64,000 nucleotides of DNA, from positions 1 through 64,000 of the IMG/VR virus record IMGVR_UViG_3300023174_000077; one strand, 5' to 3'. The position numbers were made by a program, and so were the translations under genes. The stretch is from a virus. This document shows, one piece after another, positions 1-61,346 of this stretch (within the stretch, counting starts at the first letter, position 1; each line of letters opens with the position of its first letter). Below the pieces are notes generated by a model, which saw nothing but the letters and a program-made list of their open reading frames with translations, did not search any database and was not told the DNA's origin.

Positions 1-26
1 ATCATTAATTTAGAAATGTTTATCAT
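1..26 (-). CDS. 5' end of a small cassette gene running off the window (MINISKLM...)
   Basis: ATG at 26 lies downstream of a reverse copy of the GGAGCTGAG...TTTAACA...TTTGC...TACTTTTA promoter block also seen at 3601, 3931 and 4581. Confidence 0.5.
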
Positions 27-225
27 AATTTTAATTTTTATAAAAGTAGTTTAATTTTTGGAATTGAGCAAATTTTAGATGTTAAAGTTTTGTGAAACTG
101 ATTGGCTCAGCTCCGCAGATGGTATTACTCACTCTGTGAGTCTATCGGAGATAGTAAATTGTGCACTATATGTAAAAAATAAATAGTGCACAATTTAATA
201 CCATTTCGGACCGTTAGAGTTTGAA

Positions 226-257
226 TAAAAAAAAAGCACCCAATGGGTGCTTTTTTT
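226..257. terminator. Bidirectional intrinsic terminator
   Basis: A-tract-GCACCCA-A-TGGGTGC-T-tract just after the stop of ORF 272-1762. Confidence 0.8.
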
Positions 258-271
258 CAAATATTAAAAAT

Positions 272-1762
272 TTAATGTTTTATTAGAATGTTTAACATAG
301 GTGAACTATCTGTATAACGATAAGCAAATATATTACTCGAATTAATAATAAATTTATCAACAAATTCGTTTTCAAAAGTTATTCGTTCCATATCAACTGA
401 ATAATCTATATTTAATAATTCATATAAAATATTTTTCACATGACTACAAATACTTAAGTTTTCAACACCCATTACAGATATTGTAAATAAAAAATATTTA
501 TCGGACAATAAAGTTTTTTGCTTATTAAATAAAGTTGTAATACGCTCTTTCTCTGAATTCCACCGACACATTAAATCAATATCCATAATAGGTTTTGGCT
601 GTGCCGCAATAATATCTCCAAATGTAATATTAATCTTTTCATCTATTAATTTTTTTGCCGTATTACATAATACATCAATATCAATTTCATGAGAATATAT
701 AAAATTATCACCTATGATATTTAATTTATGTAACATTTCGATATACCTTTCTGGTGTGGGGCCTAATAAAGTTAATATAGGTTTATTAACATTAGCAAGT
801 TTTGTATATAAATCTGTTTGCACATAATGTTTTCTTGGCGTATTAGAATATTCTTTTTTTAATTTAACATCATTCTTAATAGATAAAATTTGTTTATCTA
901 ATTTAGATATATCAAATTTTCTTATGTTTGCATCATAATTTAGCAATAAACGCTTTCTTTTTTCCGTTACTTGTTGAATCGAACGATGCCATTTTTTACA
1001 AAATTCATTATTATTAAAATCCTTAACAAGTATATCTAAATATTCCTCTTTTGACCATTTTTCACCAAACCTACTAGCAGTTAATGACGACTGATAATAT
1101 AATATTTTATGATGTACACCATGCCCAGTCTTATTTAGTATATTAGATATTTCTTTATATGTCATCCCCTCATCAAACAATTTTATAGCATGTTTTATTT
1201 CATTTAATGTCCAATGACAAGACGAAAATAATTCCTTAGCTTTTTTTGAATTACGCTTGGATTTTAAAGAAATATTTTCATTACGTTCCAAACGCTTTAT
1301 AGTGTTAATTTTATTCCTAACAATATTACCATTTATATTAAGCTCCCTTGTTATAGCTGGTATCGAAGCGTTAATTTCTAATAACCCTTTCAATTTGGCT
1401 TCAAGTTCATTAGTCCATTCAAAACGTGCTTTACTAGGTATGTCCAACCCTTTATATCTAACCAAATAAATACGTTTTTTAGTCAAAGCAGTTTTCGGTA
1501 AACTCATTAAATTAGAAATAGAACTAATTGATAAACCTTCTTTAAGATGTCCAATAAATGTGTTAACCAATTCTTCTGTCCATTCAACCGTAATATTGCC
1601 AAATTTTTCAACTCTAATGTTCCCTTGATTGATATGATATTGCTTTAAAATTAAAGTCTTTTCTGGTATTGATAAAATATCCGAAATATCTTTATAAGAC
1701 ATATTATTTTTACGATATTCTAAAAATAAATCTTCTGTTTCTTTTGTGAATACTTTTCCCAT
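272..1762 (-). CDS. Multi-HTH/Myb-like repeat DNA-binding protein with a C-terminal Rossmann/methyltransferase-like domain
   Basis: Repeated W(T/S)xEE...G.S...I...L units (WTEEL, WTNEL, WTLNE, WSKEE); C-terminal LTLLGP...SHEID...FGDI...DIDL pattern. Confidence 0.6.
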   Translation of the reverse strand: MGKVFTKETEDLFLEYRKNNMSYKDISDILSIPEKTLILKQYHINQGNIRVEKFGNITVEWTEELVNTFIGHLKEGLSISSISNLMSLPKTALTKKRIYLVRYKGLDIPSKARFEWTNELEAKLKGLLEINASIPAITRELNINGNIVRNKINTIKRLERNENISLKSKRNSKKAKELFSSCHWTLNEIKHAIKLFDEGMTYKEISNILNKTGHGVHHKILYYQSSLTASRFGEKWSKEEYLDILVKDFNNNEFCKKWHRSIQQVTEKRKRLLLNYDANIRKFDISKLDKQILSIKNDVKLKKEYSNTPRKHYVQTDLYTKLANVNKPILTLLGPTPERYIEMLHKLNIIGDNFIYSHEIDIDVLCNTAKKLIDEKINITFGDIIAAQPKPIMDIDLMCRWNSEKERITTLFNKQKTLLSDKYFLFTISVMGVENLSICSHVKNILYELLNIDYSVDMERITFENEFVDKFIINSSNIFAYRYTDSSPMLNILIKH

Positions 1763-2133
1763 AATATTACAACAAAAATAGCCTTTCTTTTTAGACTAAC
1801 CAAATTACAAATGTTAAAGTTAAGTTAATGATTTGCACTCAGACGCTTCGGAACATATAAAATTGTGCACGATATATTGTTTGGTTAAATACTCACTTCG
1901 TGAGATTCACGGAGTGAAAGCTCGCAAAGCGAGATTCGTTGAAAACGAATAGTGCACAATTTTATATGTCTATCTACCCGATTCGATTCACAAACAAATT
2001 AATTTTTTTAAATATAACTTTTATGAAATATTTATTTTTTTTTTATATAATGTAGAGCAAGATGCAGTGATAAATAATATATGCAAAAATAAAATATTAA
2101 CTAAATCTTTCAAAAAGAATTAATATATAATCA

Positions 2134-2313
2134 ATGAAAGATTATTTAATTGATATATTACCAGAACTTAAAATTGCATTAAATATGCAATTAAATTATA
2201 TTAATGATATTCCACACCTAACATTAATAAAAACTGATGTAGAAACAATTACAATCATAGGTGATACTGAAATAACAACTTACCTAAATAAATTAATTAA
2301 TTTTGAAATTTAA
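2134..2313 (+). CDS. Small hypothetical protein, 59 aa (MKDYLIDILPELK...), not in the ORF track
   Basis: Hand-translated open frame preceded by the TAATATATA late-type motif. Confidence 0.55.
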   Translation: MKDYLIDILPELKIALNMQLNYINDIPHLTLIKTDVETITIIGDTEITTYLNKLINFEI

Positions 2314-2349
2314 ATGTTAAAATTTATTTTAAAATTTTAACATTTTTTA

Positions 2350-2381
2350 TTTGGCTATTTCATTTACAATCAATACATTTG
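2350..2381 (+). promoter_or_regulatory. Bacteroidota sigma70-type promoter (-33 TTTG / -7 TAnnTTTG)
   Basis: TTTG at 2350 and TACATTTG at 2374. Similar -7 boxes near 2720, 5826, 6355, 7186, 8650 and 62495 (+) and near 1773, 35193 and 43121 (-). Confidence 0.7.
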
Positions 2382-2396
2382 ATAAAACATTTCAAA

Positions 2397-2660
2397 ATGG
2401 CCAAACAAAAGAAATTAAAACTTGATTTCAGAATTTTATCTGACGTTAAATGCATTTGTGGCTGCAATAGATACATTAAACAAAATGTGATTGATAGAAA
2501 CCCAACAGCCAGAAATTGCTATTTGAGCCACCTACTCGCTCACGGTAAAACACAGATATTCGCAGGTGCCTCAACTGATATAAGAACAGGTATAAGAACA
2601 CCTCGTTATATAAACATTCGTGAAACATTAAATCATATTAAAAGAAAACAACTTGTATAA
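2397..2660 (+). CDS. Small basic protein with a CxCGC motif
   Basis: ORF track; ATG 2397 follows the promoter; CICGC motif. Confidence 0.6.
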   Translation: MAKQKKLKLDFRILSDVKCICGCNRYIKQNVIDRNPTARNCYLSHLLAHGKTQIFAGASTDIRTGIRTPRYINIRETLNHIKRKQLV

Positions 2661-2744
2661 TAACATTTTGTAAAAAAACATTTTGTTGAAAATTGTTTTG
2701 TAGTTTCAAAACTTTTTTTTATCTTTGCAGTATAATAAGCAACA

Positions 2745-2945
2745 AGGACAAGAGCAGCAAATTAAATATTCAAACAATAAAATCGTAAATTTAAAAGTTA
2801 GCGTCTTGGGATAGCGCCGGTGGTACAATTAATTTAATAAAACCTTTTTCACACGCCACCGAAACACTAAAAATTGTCCTGCATAAAATTACTATACAGC
2901 AATTCTTAACAGGATACATTGGTTCAACTCCAAAAATAGTAATTT
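2745..2945 (+). ncRNA. Putative tRNA-like/Y-RNA-like structured RNA, two tandem units
   Basis: Promoter TATCTTTGCA at 2720 and no ORF. Stems AGGACAA/TTGTCCT and AAATTACTAT/ATAGTAATTT are each followed closely by CAGCAA. T-arm TTGG-TTCAACT-CCAA at 2919-2933; terminator at 3004-3041. Confidence 0.55.
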
Positions 2946-3003
2946 GATACTCATATTAAAACATTAAATTTGTTTAATGATTTTCATGTGTTTTTGGTTA
3001 CAC

Positions 3004-3041
3004 AAAAAAACTCTTATTGAGCAATCATTAAGAGTTTTTTA
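3004..3041 (+). terminator. Intrinsic terminator
   Basis: AAAAAAACTCTTA...TAAGAGTTTTTT inverted repeat. Confidence 0.7.
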
Positions 3042-3301
3042 TTTTTATACAATTCTCCGTTACCAAAAAGTGTAACAAAAATATGTAACACATCTCATAT
3101 TATATTTTTTTCTTATATATCATCATATTTCTTTTTTATTTTATATTTAGTATTTGGTATTAAATATAATTAGGCTATGATAACTATCAATTTCATTAAT
3201 CTGAAATAGATTTACAATTTCAAAAAAATTTATGAAAAAATAAAAAAAACTTATCCACTTAATCCAACAATTTATCCACACTCGAAAATCGAGCTATCAT
3301 A

Positions 3302-3490
3302 CATATTAAATTGTGCACGATTCGTTTTAAACGAAAGTATTTAAAATTATTTTATATAAATTATTTATATATGTTTCTGGTTAAAACCAAGAGATTTCTG
3401 GTTAAAATTCATATTAAATTGTGCACGATTCGTTTTAAACGAAAGTATTTAAAATTATTTTATATAAATTATTTATATATGTTTTTGGTT
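3302..3490 (+). repeat. Tandem duplication (~80 bp, period 108) starting with a palindrome left arm
   Basis: 3302-3382 is nearly identical to 3410-3490. Confidence 0.9.
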
Positions 3491-3600
3491 TTTTACATCC
3501 GCACACATCCATGAAACATATTAAATTGTGCACTATATAACCAATCATTTTCAGAAGGCATACCAAGCAAAGAAGTATTTAGTGAATAGTGCACAATTTT

Positions 3601-3689
3601 ATATGATCGCCGGAGCTGAGACAATTTCTTTAACATAACATTAACAAAATAAATTTTGCCACTAAAAAATAATTAACTACTTTTACACT
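3601..3689 (+). promoter_or_regulatory. Repeated early-promoter block ATGATCGCCGGAGCTGAG...[32 protein letters not shown]...TAyTTTTACA
   Basis: Near-identical copies at 3601-3689, 3929-4030 and 4581-4672, and a diverged reverse copy at ~40-120; each is directly upstream of a small ORF. Confidence 0.8.
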
Positions 3690-3863
3690 ATGATATTTAA
3701 TAATCCAATTCGTTCGGGAAAAGTAAGAAACGGTATCAATTGGTATCAGTATAAAAATGGAACTATTGTAATAGAAAAACAAAAATATATCTTTTATAGT
3801 ATAAAAGAAGCAATAGCTAAATATAGAAAACAATTTCCCAAATATAAAAAACTTTGTGTTTAA
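3690..3863 (+). CDS. Small basic protein, 57 aa (MIFNNPIRSGKVRNGINWYQY...), probably leaderless
   Basis: Hand-translated; ATG 4 nt after the -7 box; followed by a hairpin at 3878-3904. Confidence 0.65.
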   Translation: MIFNNPIRSGKVRNGINWYQYKNGTIVIEKQKYIFYSIKEAIAKYRKQFPKYKKLCV

Positions 3864-4044
3864 TGCCTCGATTTCGGAAGGCTTTCCTTTTCTAAGGAGA
3901 GCCTAAATAATATATAGTGCACAATTTTATATGATCGCAGGAGCTGAGATTCTACGAGCAATAAAATAGCTTTAACATAACCTTAACAAAATAAATTTTG
4001 CCGAACAATAATAATAACCTATTTTTACACAAAATTAAAAACTT

Positions 4045-4410
4045 ATGAAATATTTAGGTGTAGACATTTACAAAACTTCAACATATAATAGTTGTCCTCT
4101 AAATTATTCAGACAAATTTACCAAATTTGTTATTGAGTGTGAAAAAGGCAATTTATCAAAAGAAGATATTGAAGGTTACGCCATTATAAGAATTGTAAAG
4201 GGTAATTTGCCAAATACGCTAAAAGCGGTAATCATAGACCCAACTACAAATCAAAAATTAGTTTTAAATAAAGCCGTAGAAATGTTTGGCGGATATTACG
4301 TTGTAACATCAGATTCAAGGTTTAGCGAATTATGTAAAGCAATTTTAGGATTAGATATTCATTTTAGTTATCCAATCCCTTTACACGACAGATATGAATA
4401 TGTAAATTAA
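4045..4410 (+). CDS. Hypothetical phage protein (MFGGxY...SDSRF...IPLHDRYE)
   Basis: ORF track; flanked by the promoter block and a terminator. Confidence 0.8.
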   Translation: MKYLGVDIYKTSTYNSCPLNYSDKFTKFVIECEKGNLSKEDIEGYAIIRIVKGNLPNTLKAVIIDPTTNQKLVLNKAVEMFGGYYVVTSDSRFSELCKAILGLDIHFSYPIPLHDRYEYVN

Positions 4411-4429
4411 TATATTCTCACATATAGTG

Positions 4430-4461
4430 AAAAAAGTCGCTCATTTGAGCGACTTTTTTTT
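4430..4461 (+). terminator. Intrinsic terminator
   Basis: AAAAAAGTCGCTCA-TT-TGAGCGACTTTTTTT. Confidence 0.85.
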
Positions 4462-4689
4462 GTGCATTTCATGCACACGATTCATGAGGGCATCGATGGG
4501 AAATATTAAATTGTGCACTATTCGTTTTCAACGAATCTCACAAAGTGAGTATATGGTTATATAATATAGTGCACAATTTAATATGATCGCCGGAGCTGAG
4601 ATGATAAAATCGCTTTAACATAACCTTAACAAAATAAATTTTGCCAGCACATTATAATAAACTACTTTTACATCACAAATAAACAAATA

Positions 4690-4869
4690 ATGAATATAGA
4701 AACACACATAAAGAACATTAAACCAGGAGACACTATCCTATTCAATAACGTCCCAACAACCGTCACAGAAAAAAATATTAAATATGACAAATTTATAGGC
4801 AAAACTTTATTTGGTGACTCTTACAATTTAGGAACTAAACTCGTTATTAAAATCACCTCTGATAAATAA
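4690..4869 (+). CDS. Small phage protein, 59 aa (MNIETHIKNIKPGDTIL...LFGDSYNLG)
   Basis: Hand-translated; follows the promoter block. Confidence 0.7.
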   Translation: MNIETHIKNIKPGDTILFNNVPTTVTEKNIKYDKFIGKTLFGDSYNLGTKLVIKITSDK

Positions 4870-4880
4870 CATTTTGTAAT

Positions 4881-5198
4881 ATGTCACTCCACACAGAATA
4901 TATCAAAATAGAAAATATAGAAGTAAAATTCTCCATCCATTTCAATAGAAATAAAATCAATTATTTCACATATGAAAAAATTGATATAGGTTACCGTGTT
5001 TCAGCAACACCAGTCAAACGAACACAAGATAAAAATATTACAATCGAGGAATCCGTAGCTTTCAGTGGATTTGCAGATACCTTATTGATAGCCGAGAGGC
5101 AAAGCAAAAAAAGACTTGAAGAAGCAATCAAAATACTCAATGATAGAAAAGAAAAATATATAAATTGGTTTAAAGAAAAATATAATCTTAAAACTTAA
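4881..5198 (+). CDS. Hypothetical protein
   Basis: ORF track; terminator at 5232-5256. Confidence 0.75.
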   Translation: MSLHTEYIKIENIEVKFSIHFNRNKINYFTYEKIDIGYRVSATPVKRTQDKNITIEESVAFSGFADTLLIAERQSKKRLEEAIKILNDRKEKYINWFKEKYNLKT

Positions 5199-5640
5199 AC
5201 GCTGTTATTTGTTTTTTGTGACCATAAATAAAGACCCCTTTTCTAAGGGGTTTTTCTTTATGTTACACTTTTTTGTAACATTTTTAATATTATAATTTTT
5301 CTTAATACGTTATTATATTTTGGTTTTATCTTATATTTAATGCTTTATATTAAATATAATTAGGCTATAATAACTACTCGCTCAATCATTACACAATGTA
5401 TAAAAAAATTCTAAAAAACAAAATTTATTTTATCCACACGAACTGTAGCATCATATTAAATTGTGCACTATTCGTTTCCAACGAATCTCACTTCGTGAGT
5501 ATATATTTATAGTATATATAGTGCACAATTTAATATAAATTTTTACCAGAAATCTCTTGGTTTAACCAGAAACAAATAGTGCACAATTTAATATAATTTC
5601 GAAGCCTGTTTTTATGAGTTTTTGTTTTTTAAAAATTTTT

Positions 5641-6183
5641 AAAGCACTGTTTCAATACAGTGCTTTTTTTTATGCATTCACTCAAGCATCGAATCGACCT
5701 GAATCGACATCGAAAAGTAATATTAAATTGTGCACTATATAACTATATAATATAGTGCACAATTTAATATAATTTCTAAGCCTCTTTTTATGAGTTTTTG
5801 TTTTTTAGTTTCAAAAAAATATTCTTATCTTTGTTAAACACAAAAAACAAATATTATGAATTGTCAAAGATGTGATAATCAAGAAGCCAAAAGCTTAACT
5901 TGCTCACGCTTCAATACACAAATGATTTGCAACACTTGCGAACAAAAAGAAAAACAACACAAAGACTATCAAAAAGCGTATGATACTGAACTCAACGAAG
6001 TTAAAAAGGGCAACTATAACTTTGAAGGGATCGGTTTACCTGACGATTTAAAATAATTTATAAAAAATTAATATATTAAAAAAAAGCACTGTTTCAACAC
6101 AGTGCTTTTTTTTATGCATTCAACTCAAGCATCGAATCGACATGAATCGACATCGAAAATTAATATTAAATTGTGCACTATAT
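5641..6183 (+). repeat. ~100-bp direct repeats (terminator + TCGA-rich spacer + left arm) flanking gene 5856-6056
   Basis: 5641-5740 matches 6083-6183 (AAAGCACTGTTTCAAyACAGTGC...GCATCGAATCGAC...ATTAAATTGTGCACTATAT). Confidence 0.9.
5856..6056 (+). CDS. Small Zn-finger-like protein (CxxC...CxxC)
   Basis: CQRC and CNTC motifs; promoter TATCTTTG upstream and terminator downstream. Confidence 0.75.
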   Translation: MNCQRCDNQEAKSLTCSRFNTQMICNTCEQKEKQHKDYQKAYDTELNEVKKGNYNFEGIGLPDDLK

Positions 6184-6377
6184 GTTTTTAATTATATAGT
6201 GCACAATTTAATATGATCGCGTAGCTAGGGTCTAACATTAGCCCTCATTTGTATTAAACTCGTTTGTAATTTTTTCATTTGCGAAAAATAAATACAAAAA
6301 TTAATATATCTCAACTAACAAACTGATTTAACTTTTTCTTAACTTTTTCTTACCTATCTTTGTTAAAACAAAAAAAA

Positions 6378-6554
6378 ATGAAAACCATAACAATATTATT
6401 TTTCTTATTTGGACTATTCTCCACATATAAGATTAAAAAAGAATGTGGCGAATGGAAACATTTTAATATAAATGAAGTTTCTCTTATATATAATGTCGGA
6501 TTTATATTAGGTATTATAATATTGTTCGTACTGATAATTAAATACTTACCGTGA
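6378..6554 (+). CDS. Small two-TM membrane protein
   Basis: Two hydrophobic stretches; promoter at 6355; terminator at 6618-6643. Confidence 0.65.
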   Translation: MKTITILFFLFGLFSTYKIKKECGEWKHFNINEVSLIYNVGFILGIIILFVLIIKYLP

Positions 6555-7217
6555 GTCTCGCTTTACGAGTACAATAAAAATTTGTTATTTGTTATTTGTT
6601 TTTTAGTGTGATTATGTAGCGCCTTTTCTAAGGCGCTTTTTTTATATCCGTAACAAAATTCTGTTACACTTCCACTCCTCTCAACCTCTAACCAAATATT
6701 AAATTAATATTATATACTTTTATTCTTTTATAATTATCTTTTTTATAAAATCAAATATACAAAAGTTTCCACAGAAAAACATATTTTAGCCGTTCTAATA
6801 TAGTGCACGAATCCTTGCGTCGATCGATCATATTAAATTGTGCGCTATATAATTAAAAACATATACTCACTTTGTGAGATTCGTTGAAAACGAATAGCGC
6901 ACAATTTAATATGATTATCATGCCTCAGCGTTTCAAAAACATATTACAAAAATTTATATATGTCGTTGAACTAAACATTAACTTTTCTTTAACAATATAT
7001 TCACTAACTTAGTGTTTCACACATGTATATTCAAACAACATATAGCGCACAATTTACTATCACTCCGTGATAGAGTCACTTTGTGAGTAATATGACCGAT
7101 CATTTTTGCTATCTACTTTGAGCAAGTTCAAACAACATTAACTTTTCTTTAACAACTAACTATTGTTAGCCTCAATAAAACAAACTATCTTTGTGTAATC
7201 ACACAAATAAAAAATCT

Positions 7218-7562
7218 ATGACTATTCAATTCTCAATCGTTGATAAATCAACTGATACAAAAAATTTAGACGAAGTTTTACAAAAAATTAAAGCTAACTT
7301 CATATTCAATACTAAAGAATATATTAGCGACAAAGCCTTCGATACAATATGTGAAATAGCAAAATCAATCTTAATAAAAGATAAACAATTAAATCATAAC
7401 ACAAAACTAATTAGACGTATCTTAAAACACAACACTACTAATACAACTCCAGAAGATATAAAAGATACCGAACTTAAACTAAATACATTATTACAAAATA
7501 TACATTTAGAAACAGAAATCAAACAAGCTTTTAATATACAACTTAATCCTCATATGAACTAA
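7218..7562 (+). CDS. Hypothetical protein
   Basis: ORF track (ATG 7218 follows TATCTTTG); palindromic terminator at 7580-7620. Confidence 0.65.
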   Translation: MTIQFSIVDKSTDTKNLDEVLQKIKANFIFNTKEYISDKAFDTICEIAKSILIKDKQLNHNTKLIRRILKHNTTNTTPEDIKDTELKLNTLLQNIHLETEIKQAFNIQLNPHMN

Positions 7563-7862
7563 CATATAAATATTAGACATAGAAAAAAGGCCAAGCTATT
7601 ATAGCTTGGCCTTTTTTCTATATATGATACATAGCAAGAGTTCGAGCTGTAGCGATCATATTAAATTGTGCATTATTTAATTATATAACATTATTAAAGT
7701 TATGTTAAAATTAGGTATGGCGCATTTTGCGATATGTTAATATTATGTTAAATATAGGGTATATGGACTATGCTCGAAAAGTGCCCTTTAGAGGCTCCTG
7801 GTACTTTTTAGGTTTGTTTTTTCTTTTAAATCCCAAACTTATCCAAGAAACTTCTCCTATTG

Positions 7863-8110
7863 AAGGATTTTTTATCGTTCTAAATTTCCAAAAAAATTCC
7901 AAAAAAATTGTATAGTTAAATCTATTAAACTCTTTAAGGTGGATTTTTTATTGTTCCAAATATTTTCCAAATCAATTGAAAAAAATTTCAAAATAATCTA
8001 TATTTTATTCTATAGAAATCTATAAGGTGGATTTTTTATCGTTTTATAATTTTTGAAAAATCCTGTATACTTAAATCTATTGAAGTATATAAGGTGGATT
8101 TTTTATCGTG
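7863..8110 (+). repeat. Four iteron-like direct repeats AAGG(TGG)ATTTTTTATyGT; candidate replication origin
   Basis: Copies at 7863, 7936, 8024 and 8091 in an AT-rich non-coding gap. Confidence 0.7.
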
Positions 8111-8144
8111 TATGTTAAAGTCATGAGTTTTTTATTATGAATTA

Positions 8145-8154
8145 TTAATATATA
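8145..8154 (+). promoter_or_regulatory. Putative phage late promoter motif TAATATATA
   Basis: Recurs shortly upstream of starts at 2134, 8182, 43197, 49556, 53410, 59537 and 62088 (+) and 18249, 21923, 33268 and 49057 (-); analogous to T4 TATAAATA. Confidence 0.65.
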
Positions 8155-8181
8155 AGTTTAAGATTAAAAAAAATTATAATT

Positions 8182-8535
8182 ATGAAATATTTAAAATTAT
8201 TTGAAAACTTCAAAATAAATGAAGATAAGTTTCACGATAACTTAAATGGATACTCACTTTTCATGAATAAGGAAAAGCAAGAAAAGTCTGGATTCGCTAA
8301 AGGTGATAAAGTTGAGTTTGACTTCAAAAAAACTGATGGTTCAATTGAGCAAACAGTAGAAGGTGTTGTTGAGAATGTTTATGGTGAGGCAGAAAATCCA
8401 GAAGATGCTAAGACAAAATTTGATTACCCAATAAAAAACTGGGCAGTAGTTGTTAGAACATCAAAATCTTTATGGCAATTTGGTTCAGATGAAAGTAAAT
8501 TCCAATGGAGCTTAAAAGATTTAAGAAAAATCTAA
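8182..8535 (+). CDS. Hypothetical protein with an MKYLKLFENF N-terminal motif (putative virion internal protein)
   Basis: ORF track; late motif upstream; terminator at 8537-8566. Confidence 0.75.
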   Translation: MKYLKLFENFKINEDKFHDNLNGYSLFMNKEKQEKSGFAKGDKVEFDFKKTDGSIEQTVEGVVENVYGEAENPEDAKTKFDYPIKNWAVVVRTSKSLWQFGSDESKFQWSLKDLRKI

Positions 8536-8660
8536 TAAAAAACCTCTCAATTTGAGAGGTTTTTTATTTTAAATATATCAAATTACTCCTCTAATTATTA
8601 TTTTAATTTATTATTAAAAAATATATTTGTTATATTTTATTTTTTTGTGTATATTTGTAT

Positions 8661-8921
8661 ATGAATATGCCTTATTATTATATCTCGAATGAAATTCCTA
8701 TATTAGTTTGTATAAATGATTCTATATCTGTAATTAGTAATAAATTTACTCACATTAAAATAGGTTCATTATGCAATACTAAGCAATTAGATTTTGGTGC
8801 TAGTTATTTGAATTATATAGGTATATTTATAGAAGGTGTATATTATGGTGCACATTCTACTAAGAATTTTGTAACATTAGGTGAGTTTCGTAATATGAGA
8901 ATTTTAGAAATTTTAAATTAA
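8661..8921 (+). CDS. Hypothetical protein
   Basis: ORF track; TATATTTG box upstream. Confidence 0.6.
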   Translation: MNMPYYYISNEIPILVCINDSISVISNKFTHIKIGSLCNTKQLDFGASYLNYIGIFIEGVYYGAHSTKNFVTLGEFRNMRILEILN

Positions 8922-8924
8922 AAT

Positions 8925-9179
8925 ATGATATTTAAGATAATGCTTGTTAATAAGCTTGATGATTTTAAGTTTGGTGAGTTATATATGTATAATAGTATGA
9001 TAACATATTATTTAGAATCTAAGAAAAAGCATTCTATATTTAATAGTAATTATGATATAATTGGATATTTGGAGTGGAATGATATTTTAGATAATTTTGT
9101 TCGTGTAGAGAATTGGGAGTCTGATTTACAATCGGTGGATAATTTATTTAATTTGTATATGGATCATAATTTAGGTTAA
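8925..9179 (+). CDS. Hypothetical protein
   Basis: ORF track; adjacent to the previous gene. Confidence 0.6.
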   Translation: MIFKIMLVNKLDDFKFGELYMYNSMITYYLESKKKHSIFNSNYDIIGYLEWNDILDNFVRVENWESDLQSVDNLFNLYMDHNLG

Positions 9180-9227
9180 TGTGGATTTTTTGTTAGGTTT
9201 GGAAAATTTCTGCTTCTTTAGGCGGTT

Positions 9228-9626
9228 TTATTTTATTAGGTAATTATGTAATAAGTTAATATCATTTAAGATTATATTTGTATAATTATTTACCATTACC
9301 CAATCTGATTTTACTGTTTTATATTCTTCTGGTAGTTCTATTATGTTTATGTTTGTGTTTGTTAGGTTTTTTTTTATATTGTTTCTATTTCTTAATTCTG
9401 TATCTGTATATATGTATAATACATTATCGAAATAAGTTTCTAGTTTATATTCAAATAGGTAAGTGCATTCTATTAATACATAAGGAGATAATTTATGTTT
9501 TTCGTAGAAATTATCTAATATAGATATATCATTATCTATTTTAATAGAAGGTATTCCAAATTTTTGGAATTCTGATAATATAAAAGATTTTCCAGAGCCT
9601 TTTTTCCCTGTTATGGCTATTTTCAT
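9228..9626 (-). CDS. coaE: Short dephospho-CoA kinase-like P-loop kinase
   Basis: KIAITGKKGSGKS, V.IE..YLFE and DNVLYIY..ELR motifs; the middle domain appears deleted. Confidence 0.55.
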   Translation of the reverse strand: MKIAITGKKGSGKSFILSEFQKFGIPSIKIDNDISILDNFYEKHKLSPYVLIECTYLFEYKLETYFDNVLYIYTDTELRNRNNIKKNLTNTNINIIELPEEYKTVKSDWVMVNNYTNIILNDINLLHNYLIK

Positions 9627-60467: not shown

Positions 60468-61346
60468 TTAGATGAGTTTATTTTTATTTAAGAAACCATA
60501 TTTTTTAAATAATTTATATGTTAATATTTTATACCACGGCAAATCACTAACAAAATTAATATTAAGCTTATCATAAGCATATTTAGCATTTTCCGAACAA
60601 TTGTCTATTTTACCAGACCATTTTATAACTTCCTGATTGATGTTGATATTTGATTCGACTAAGAATACCCCATTTCCATTTAATTCTGCTGAACGTCCTA
60701 CTAATATAGTATTATCAGATTGATTGGTATTGACGAAAACTTTAAAATTATTTAATGTGCCTACCTGAAATATTTTTTGTTCAAGTTGGAAGGTGTCACT
60801 GACTCTGCTTAGTGTTGTGTAACAAAAATTTGCCGAATCTTGAATTATTGGTAAAAATTTTGGACTTATTACTATAAATGTTGCAGCTCCAAGACGAGAA
60901 TTTACAGCTATAAGATTTGAAAGAATTGTAATTCTTGTTATTAAGCTTCTAAATTCTGTTGCATCATCTTTATTTGTATCATTTATTAAAATATCGGCAT
61001 CTCCTTTAATCCATTTTGTAAATTTAGTCCAAATGTTAGTTTGTTCTGTTCGTGTATTTTTATATGATTTATCATTTTTATCTGCTAATTCTACATATTT
61101 ATCATATAATTGTTGTGATAAATTATTAATTAAAATTGATTTACTAGATTTAACAAAAGTATATTGCTCACATTTAAAAGTTTTTTTATTAATACCTAAA
61201 CTAATAGTTGAATAAGAAGTAGTTTCATCTTTTGTGATTGATTGATCAATATAACTGATTTGAAATTCCGGTTTATCTGTTTTATAAATAGCTGCTGTAT
61301 TTAAAAATGACGAATTTAGATAATTTGTTTCATTATTTTTATTCAT
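60468..61346 (-). CDS. Divergent major-capsid (gp23/gp24)-like fragment
   Basis: SRLGAATFIVISP...VGTLN.FKVFVN...ILVGR resembles the gp23 C-terminal half. Confidence 0.5.
   Translation of the reverse strand: MNKNNETNYLNSSFLNTAAIYKTDKPEFQISYIDQSITKDETTSYSTISLGINKKTFKCEQYTFVKSSKSILINNLSQQLYDKYVELADKNDKSYKNTRTEQTNIWTKFTKWIKGDADILINDTNKDDATEFRSLITRITILSNLIAVNSRLGAATFIVISPKFLPIIQDSANFCYTTLSRVSDTFQLEQKIFQVGTLNNFKVFVNTNQSDNTILVGRSAELNGNGVFLVESNININQEVIKWSGKIDNCSENAKYAYDKLNINFVSDLPWYKILTYKLFKKYGFLNKNKLI

Follow-up and report, generated by a model that had tools for sequence, protein, structure and literature searches.

Here we describe a family of repeated palindromic elements, built from a 20-nt arm sequence and short nested dyads, at the start of a contig from a huge uncultivated phage. 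The DNA analysed, referred to as the window, comprises bases 1-64000 of the 122,094-nt IMG/VR virus record IMGVR_UViG_3300023174_000077 and has a composition of 27% G+C. The completeness of the record is put at 22% by CheckV, which implies a genome of ~0.5 Mb. A T4-like gene set is present (T4-type large terminase, gp23-like capsid protein, gp44-like clamp loader and UvsW-like helicase), and Pfam and PHROGs matches add ClpP, a tail sheath protein and many homing-endonuclease domains. Since one protein carries a type IX secretion sorting domain, the host is probably a member of the Bacteroidota. By tblastn, the closest relatives in GenBank are uncultured 634-735-kb phages, with 30-47% identity across part of one protein, and near-identical DNA was found in 12 freshwater or lake metagenome runs (6 studies, DNA only).

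The initial annotation had pointed to positions 1854-1968, where four triloop dyads were said to lie in tandem between the arms of a palindrome, and the sequence there is exactly as described. This element sits between divergent genes and, judged by the position of one of its dyads, points to the gene on the minus strand, P0001. It proved to be one of many in the first 7.7 kb of the record, and all of the evidence below comes from paralogous copies within this one genome.

Arms, mini-dyads and their gene context

The arm, ATATTAAATTGTGCACTAT, occurs in 22 copies once all are oriented alike, every one of them in 154-7676, and AAATTGTGCAC is exact in 19 of these. Sixteen arms make up eight inverted pairs (151, 1854, 3518, 4503, 5453, 5720, 6163 and 6830), in which perfect arms of 15-22 nt make a long hairpin possible. 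The other six are solo arms (3308, 3416, 3917, 5579, 7045 and 7663), two of them in direct repeat, and these keep the same 20-nt sequence as the paired ones. Confinement to the region is nearly complete. The 13-nt arm core TTAAATTGTGCAC, with at most one mismatch, has all 21 of its matches in the whole 122,094-nt record within 154-7673, and AATTGTGCAC, likewise with at most one mismatch, is matched 35 times in 64 kb, where shuffled sequence gives 5.17 +/- 2.49 (0/100 shuffles reach 35). Taken together, 22/22 arms and 15/16 dyad-pattern matches fall in 127-7676 of the 122-kb record, and the arms cease after 7.7 kb. The arm core reads TnGTGCACnA, a quasi-palindrome of the sort found in dimer sites. 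GTGCAC was also considered as a methylase or restriction target; the count outside the region, 2 where 5.0 would be expected, is uninformative.

The 16 mini-dyads have 3-nt centres and stems of 5-7 bp. Six are of type A (ATTCGTT n3 AACGAAT) and ten of types B (CTCAC n3 GTGAG and variants) and C (CTATC n3 GATAG). The pattern TCACNNNGTGA has 9 matches where 0.40 are expected, 8 of them in 129-7086, and TTCGTTNNNAACGAA has 6 where 0.00 are expected, all within 1935-6894. The elements are listed below with the P0001 gene; z values refer to folding as single-stranded DNA against shuffles.

127-154, no strand: B dyad ACTCAC-TCT-GTGAGT (127-141) and C dyad CTATC-GGA-GATAG (142-154), outside an arm pair and abutting its L arm
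151-200, no strand: dyad-free palindrome with perfect arms 155-169 and 183-197 and a 13-nt spacer; z -7.2
272-1762, minus: P0001 gene, 496 aa, with ~five tandem helix-turn-helix (HTH) modules and a C-terminal methyltransferase-like alpha/beta domain
1854-1968, minus: the reported element, arms 1854-1870 (CATATAAAATTGTGCAC) and 1952-1968 (complement); dyads B1 CTCAC-TTC-GTGAG (1892-1904), B2 TTCAC-GGA-GTGAA (1906-1918), B3 CTCGC-AAA-GCGAG (1921-1933) and A ATTCGTT-GAA-AACGAAT (1934-1950); z -8.75 and -8.21
3303-3335, plus: solo L arm with adjacent A dyad TTCGTT-TTA-AACGAA
3411-3443, plus: second solo L arm with A dyad, a direct repeat of 3303-3335, 108 nt off, 98%
3518-3603, plus: arm pair with a 50-nt spacer, dyad-free; z -3.6; followed by the conserved block GATCGCCGGAGCTGAG ... 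TTTTGCC N19 TACTTTTAC and the open reading frame (ORF) 3690-3863
3912-3931, plus: solo R arm, followed by the same GATCGCCGGAGCTGAG-type conserved block and ORF 4045-4410
4503-4583, plus: palindrome with A 4520-4536, B 4537-4549 and an AT hairpin; z -9.9; followed by the conserved block and ORFs 4690-4869 and 4881-5198
5453-5536, plus: palindrome with A 5470-5486 and B 5487-5499; z -10.6
5575-5594, plus: extra R arm; 47 nt on, the terminator 5641-5672
5720-5770, no strand: dyad-free palindrome with 21-bp arms; z -9.3; upstream of the TATCTTTG box 5826 and ORF 5856-6056
6163-6214, no strand: dyad-free palindrome with 21-bp arms; z -9.2; upstream of the TATCTTTG box 6355 and ORF 6378-6554
6830-6912, minus: palindrome with B 6866-6878 and A 6879-6895, GTGCGC variant in both arms; z -8.3
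7041-7088, plus: solo R arm (GCGCAC variant), C dyad CTATCAC-TCC-GTGATAG (7057-7073) and B dyad AGTCAC-TTT-GTGAGT (7074-7088, one G.G mismatch); upstream of the TATCTTTG box 7186 and ORF 7218-7562
7658-7676, plus: last solo arm, GTGCAT variant

The recurrences that the initial annotation placed at 4520-4549, 5470-5499, 6866-6895, 128-140 and 7057-7087 were all recovered with the stems and loops it gave, and its palindromes without an inner hairpin, at 155, 5720 and 6163, correspond to 151-200, 5720-5770 and 6163-6214. Its picture of hairpins sitting in palindrome loops describes 10 of the 16 dyads. The remaining six lie outside an arm pair (128, 142), beside solo arms (3321, 3429) or after a solo arm (7059, 7075), and half of the eight palindromes have no dyad at all. 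Thus the dyads are modules that travel with the arms and not specifically loop contents.

The view that stems are constant and loops variable needs a similar adjustment. Compared across these copies, the stems are conserved and the 3-nt centres do differ, but 14 of the 16 centres are all-purine or all-pyrimidine (TTC, GAA, TCC, GGA, AAA, TTT and TCT, the exceptions being two TTA copies), so the loops are not free. Five of the ten B/C dyads present a C-GNA-G triloop on one strand and the other five carry AAA/TTT or TCT, while all six A dyads close with T:A. Relative to gene direction, the purine loop keeps to one strand in the A and C dyads, which common descent may suffice to explain, and changes strand among the B dyads.

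Each element lies between the intrinsic terminator of the upstream gene and a host-type promoter-like box with the small ORF of the next gene, and the region thus reads as about ten small transcription units with an arm element before each. Terminator-like sites number 13 where 1.8 +/- 1.5 are expected. These are separate hairpins with G/C stems, whereas the repeated palindrome is AT-rich and lacks a T-run; the nearby terminators carry A- and T-runs on both sides and could therefore stop transcripts from either direction. In the dyad-bearing palindromes one arm leads inward to A and then B, and the opposite arm leads inward to TATAT-type sequence. Outside the second arm follows, in three copies, a conserved block, GATCGCCGGAGCTGAG ... 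CTTTAACAT ... TTTTGCC N19 TAnTTTTAC, and then a small ORF. In an alternative layout a TATCTTTG box stands 15-24 nt before the ORF, at 5826, 6355 and 7186. A TATATA-type sequence abuts the gene-proximal arm of many elements, and TATAT or TAATA is found downstream of B dyads. The promoter-like boxes fit -33 TTTG / -7 TAnnTTTG, which we take to be the Bacteroidota consensus. A sigma-70 promoter scan gave 70 sites against 76.6, with no enrichment, as expected since Bacteroidota use other boxes. The arms are not in fixed phase with the promoter, their distance to the -7 box ranging between ~56 and 141 nt. Perfect DnaA boxes, TTATCCACA, occur at 3272-3280 and 5430-5438, 23-31 nt before L arms; as four more copies lie elsewhere in the 122 kb, the enrichment is weak. 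Among the small ORFs of 2134-9179, 10/13 have no PHROG match and none has a Pfam match above cut-off.

Folding, rearrangement and distribution of the elements

When all copies were folded as single-stranded DNA, the elements behaved as predicted, the arms forming a stem and the dyads its branches, with z from -3.6 to -10.6 against shuffles. Minimum free energies were -21.7 to -31.2 kcal/mol for dyad-bearing elements (z -8.2 to -10.6) and -13.6 to -18.0 kcal/mol for dyad-free palindromes (z -7.2 to -9.3), the widely spaced 3518 pair standing apart at z -3.6. B1 and B2 (1892-1918) can alternatively fold as a single 11-bp hairpin. Isolated 5-bp hairpins are marginal, at -5.6 and -6.2 kcal/mol for pairs of them.

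The two halves of the dyads clearly change in step. When the ten B/C dyads are aligned, pairing holds in 49 of the 50 cells formed by their five stem pairs; one cell is unpaired, one-sided changes are absent, and two-sided changes occur at three stem pairs, in 5 cells. The covariation score, with six pairs tested, is 0.319 against 0.126 +/- 0.053 in shuffled alignments and 0-0.044 in slid controls; none of 500 shuffles reaches 0.319, a count that, for paralogous copies, is not readable as a probability. Imperfect pairing cells are G.G, A.A, T.T and G.A, never of the G-U type. The A stems are invariant among copies and hence uninformative on this point. Covariation of the arms is weak: GTGCGC is found in both arms at 6830 but also in the solo arm 7045, and TATAAAATT is found in both 1854 arms but also at 3589 and 3917, the pair 3523/3589 being mismatched there. 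Variant arms cluster locally (GCGC at 6835, 6897 and 7045), and local copying would explain the pattern of arm variants as well as selection for pairing would. The conclusion of the initial annotation that selection acts on structure is upheld in part. The in-step stem changes and the single-stranded folds agree with it, but the sequence of arms and stems is itself near-invariant and 6/22 arms have no partner.

The elements are also modular. The palindrome at 6830-6912 is an inverted copy of 4503-4561, flank included (59 nt, 95%), so whole elements occur in both orientations; its other half matches the inverted 6163 palindrome (41 nt, 98%), the difference being a clean A+B block, 31 nt long, with AT on either side. 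A contig of one metagenome run, X2, covers 5242-5502 and then goes on as TCAC-TCC-GTGAA and CTCGC-TTT-GCG. The 5453 element of that strain therefore has three B-type dyads where the window has one, in an order and with centres unlike the 1892-1933 trio, and the same stems appear with flipped centres. Of six contig joints seen in other runs, two link one arm to another on the opposite strand, 155 with 1962 (X8/X9) and 4517 with 6897 (X6). In four DNA runs, 1 substitution and 11 indel rows were recorded, all outside arms and dyads; most contigs stop at the repeats, and these data are therefore blind to variation within them. Nor did the 4 runs show, at low power, a presence/absence polymorphism whose limits coincide with those of an element.

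Searches for relatives carrying the repeats returned little. Queried with the region by megablast and blastn, the GenBank phages yielded nothing or three trivial matches of 60-70 nt, a 15-nt arm query of IMG/VR gave 70 loci with one match each, which is the chance level, and a protein-anchored search of IMG/VR gave nothing. Several candidates were rejected: three unrelated loci from an arm-pair scan (one a tandem repeat of a giant virus, another an operator-like site ahead of an HTH gene, and a third), four A+B matches, all within coding sequence, and nine single matches of an 18-nt arm in unrelated taxa of GTDB (one genome per species). The 634-735-kb GenBank relatives have no P0001 homologue, and one of them, of 642 kb (LR756502.1), lacks any repeated family of palindromes; nearly all of its 14 long inverted repeats are A-run/T-run terminators. 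Because only single chance matches were found in IMG/VR, GenBank phages and GTDB, and because the 642-kb relative lacks the family, the arms and dyads appear lineage-specific as far as can be seen. The most frequent repeat of LR756502.1, a motif in ~60 copies, corresponds to the 5' end of the genes in one paralogous family (ATGAAACACTTAAAG...) and often follows TAATATATA. The literature searched, on inverted repeats and early promoters of huge or jumbo phages and on cruciforms at phage intergenic palindromes, describes no such elements.

Proposed sequence-read cassettes and alternative explanations

We tentatively favour, at slightly under an even chance, a reading in which the elements are cis-regulatory cassettes read by sequence in duplex DNA, resembling the PeSL elements of T4-type phages, with the ability to form hairpins shaping their evolution. 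This reading is preferred because the elements have a fixed place in each transcription unit, because their boxes are near-invariant, and because solo arms and dyads outside arm pairs occur. A cassette would consist of an arm box of 20-24 nt, present singly, as a direct repeat or, most often, as an inverted pair, together with dyad boxes A, B and C. We infer that one or more DNA-binding proteins encoded by the phage would read these boxes as duplex sites and so switch about ten transcription units together, with P0001 the obvious candidate, and that recombination at the arms would shuffle gene cassettes as proposed for PeSLs. Templated mutation would keep the dyads perfect while they are gained, lost and reordered. 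The region would then be putatively early and hyperplastic, the early timing being suggested by gene size and layout. Near-invariance of arm and stem sequence is what sequence-specific reading, or recent copying, would predict, and structure alone would not.

P0001 is the candidate binder of the boxes. It matches PHROG 323 (phrog_323), 'transcriptional regulator, D5-like', at E 8e-11, although its Pfam HTH matches are weak and below cut-off. An AlphaFold model from an 8-sequence alignment (mean pLDDT 76.6) shows about five three-helix modules and then an alpha/beta domain that resembles class I S-adenosylmethionine methyltransferases (Foldseek, E about 1e-5); the overall TM is low because only part of the model aligns. 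The methyltransferase-like fold has an unusual glycine-rich motif, LLGPTPE. The richest element, 1854-1968, lies within P0001's own upstream region, where a promoter-like box, TTTG N17-21 TATTTTTG, ends 10 nt before the ATG. Homologues share 37-44% identity; seven are from metagenomes, and the C-terminal half is strongly conserved.

By analogy, the closest known kind of element is the PeSL cassette of T4-type phages, in which a host-type promoter is combined with a stem-loop among orphan genes and mediates modular shuffling (PMC2839356, PMC4122927). As with PeSLs, intergenic cassettes are here repeated in a T4-like phage where small orphan genes cluster, a stem-loop is combined with a host-type promoter, and, if the contig joints are real, related strains rejoin at the arms, as at the gene-module recombination sites proposed there. 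The two differ in that the PeSL stem-loop is itself the G/C-rich terminator, whereas here the terminator is separate and the palindrome an additional AT-rich pair of 20-nt arms with nested dyads; moreover, the promoter-like boxes stand 56-141 nt beyond the palindrome and do not form one composite motif with it, and there is no sequence similarity.

Several observations weigh against the cassette reading. Five double changes stand against a single unpaired cell, and the half-sites of a dimer, being independent, should not change in step. The 14/16 purine or pyrimidine centres and the C-GNA-G triloops in 5/10 B/C dyads fit hairpins better than duplex operators, and half-site centres 8 bp apart are short for HTH dimers. 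The spacing from arm to -7 box is not fixed. Such repeats and dyads are absent upstream of the P0001 homologues at two metagenome loci (L071, L072), and the arm joints, which were taken from de Bruijn contigs, may reflect a switch of path at a repeat. Overall, the in-step changes, the purine and pyrimidine centres, the GNA loops and the way in which dyads are flipped and reordered are more in keeping with hairpins than with ordinary operators. These hairpin-like features could reflect a protein that reads folded DNA, or templated mutation in transient hairpins during replication. Such mutation is classically documented in T4, and templated (quasipalindrome) mutation could yield double changes without selection.

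Recognition of folded DNA is accordingly the first alternative, though we consider it unlikely. Under supercoiling or in single strands, the arms would form cruciforms or the dyads triloop hairpins, and a phage protein would read the fold, as at an N4-like promoter or a HUH or junction-resolving site. Stems kept paired by double changes, with a covariation score above all 500 shuffles, agree with this, as do the strong single-stranded folds (z -7.2 to -10.6 in 9/10 full elements), the all-purine or all-pyrimidine loops and the retention of stems under flipped centres between the X2 strain and the window. The geometry of 5-7-bp stems and 3-nt loops agrees as well, and the C-GNA-G type of half the B/C dyads is one that extrudes in N4, where a loop-closing G:C pair with 5'G and 3'A in the loop permits extrusion (PMC4496689). 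The upstream position in a putative early region adds to the likeness. Yet N4 has three single promoters conserved from -17 to +1, whereas here there are arrays in both orientations, half of the B/C loops (AAA/TTT, TCT) are not GNA, and neither an A-tract ruler nor a +1C nor a shared A4-C start follows the B dyads. Solo arms and dyads outside pairs keep their sequence, and the isolated 5-bp hairpins are marginal. Finally, no N4-type virion RNA polymerase homologue, other T7-like, N4-like or single-subunit RNA polymerase, HUH/Rep protein, RAYT or IS200/IS605 TnpA was found in the 122 kb, which is ~22% of the genome (Pfam scan of 45 + 56 = 101 ORFs, PHROGs scan of 17 ORFs); a 1927-aa orphan ORF has no PHROG match and no PDB relative by sequence. 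The fuller proposal, that a huge T4-like Bacteroidota phage uses extruded cruciform arms with interchangeable triloop mini-hairpins as regulatory or recombination signals for a structure-specific protein (a hairpin-dependent polymerase, single-stranded DNA nickase or recombinase), seems to us a shade more doubtful still. If true, folded-DNA reading would extend hairpin-dependent recognition beyond N4-like phages and would place an N4-like or HUH-like principle, in array form, in a completely different phage lineage.

An improbable second alternative is that the palindromes are selfish or mechanically generated, in the manner of REPINs, MITEs or PATEs, having spread by insertion, fold-back copying or template switching and being tolerated between genes with little function. 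REP/REPIN-RAYT and IS200/IS605-derived palindromic elements, which belong with HUH enzymes (compare PMC3184786, PMC6006769), likewise set two copies of a conserved 20-25-nt repeat in inverted orientation across a spacer of variable length and have short hairpins. The clean 31-nt A+B insertion flanked by AT that distinguishes 6830-6912 from the 6163-type palindrome is what such spread would leave behind. So is the difference in number and order of B dyads between the 1854 element of the window and the 5453 element of the X2 strain, and so is B2, which looks like an inverted copy of B1, as the joint 11-bp hairpin suggests. The lineage-specific distribution and the clustering of variant arms with their neighbours, as local copying predicts, point the same way. 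Against this, the copies are undispersed, all lying in 7.7 kb and at the same place in each transcription unit, they are AT-rich where REPs are G/C-rich, there is no transposase candidate in the 101 ORFs and no RAYT or TnpA in the 122 kb, collection matches are single and at chance level, and, at low power, no polymorphism among the 4 runs exactly bounds an element.

A role at the RNA level is a distinctly poor prospect. Transcripts would fold into 19-22-bp hairpins acting as RNase III-type processing or stability sites, or small RNAs would run from the arms into bidirectional terminators. The perfect 15-22-bp stems given by the arms and the terminators with A- and T-runs on both sides suit this idea; so do the R arm at 5575-5594, which is followed only by 47 nt and a terminator, and the TATATA-type box abutting the gene-proximal arm, which resembles the ATATATA found upstream of 51/109 ORFs. 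However, the elements are nominally untranscribed, since they lie downstream of terminators and upstream of promoter-like boxes, solo arms are unable to pair, mismatches are never of the G-U type, and an Rfam scan of 1-9500 found no family at gathering score, its matches being terminator look-alikes.

The hr palindromes of baculoviruses, about 30 bp long, bind IE-1 and are dispersed, and hr elements are both enhancers and origins. A replication origin or DNA-entry control region of the hr or T5 injection-stop (iss) kind has little likelihood here. In its favour, this large DNA virus has imperfect palindromes clustered right where the contig begins, perfect TTATCCACA boxes at 3272 and 5430 precede L arms, P0001 matches a PHROG named after T5 D5, and the iss region is described as rich in repeats, inverted repeats and palindromes, with DnaA boxes (bioRxiv 10.1101/866236). 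That region, however, is one long untranslated stretch with 8 ordered DnaA boxes, whereas here the region is translated, with one element per gene and a gene after each, only two DnaA boxes are nearby and four more TTATCCACA lie in the 122 kb; moreover, the start of the contig need not be an end of the genome, contigs from other runs extending beyond the stretch.

Huge uncultivated phages have almost no mapped regulatory DNA, and this region provides a compact, testable set of about ten transcription units, with a candidate multi-HTH regulator encoded alongside. The nested dyads also offer a natural system in which to ask whether palindromes are read as duplex or folded DNA, and how cassettes drive gene shuffling.

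Other features of the record

An ARAGORN scan for tRNA and tmRNA genes gave zero matches. At 292 aa the gp23-like capsid ORF (60468-61346, minus strand) is short, its Pfam match spanning positions 212-306 of a 376-position profile, and may be split or recoded. Outside the repeat region (window 9500-64000 and record 64001-122094), ATATATA, inside TAATATATA-like boxes, is found at most 80 nt upstream of 51/109 ORFs, against 5.0 expected, probably as a middle or late promoter box of the phage itself.

Within the repeat region, a perfect TATCTTTG box at 2720 is followed by ~310 nt without an ORF above 42 aa and then by a strong terminator at ~3008-3045. The interval 2720-3046 is a possible non-coding RNA; its RNA fold has z -2.4, with zero Rfam or tRNA matches. 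A second dyad type, GTTAC/GTAAC with arms 5-9 nt apart, lies directly downstream of three terminators (3058-3095, 5261-5290 and 6649-6680), and such dyads fall in a 116-nt repeat (3071-3186 / 5261-5376, 76%). After the last arm, an 81-nt direct repeat containing TAAGGTGGATTTTTTATCGTT is present three times in 7891-8126, at 68-73% identity. Additionally, a 61-nt block of tandem GAATCGAC motifs precedes the dyad-free palindromes 5720 and 6163 (5680-5719 and 6123-6162), its copies being 97% identical.

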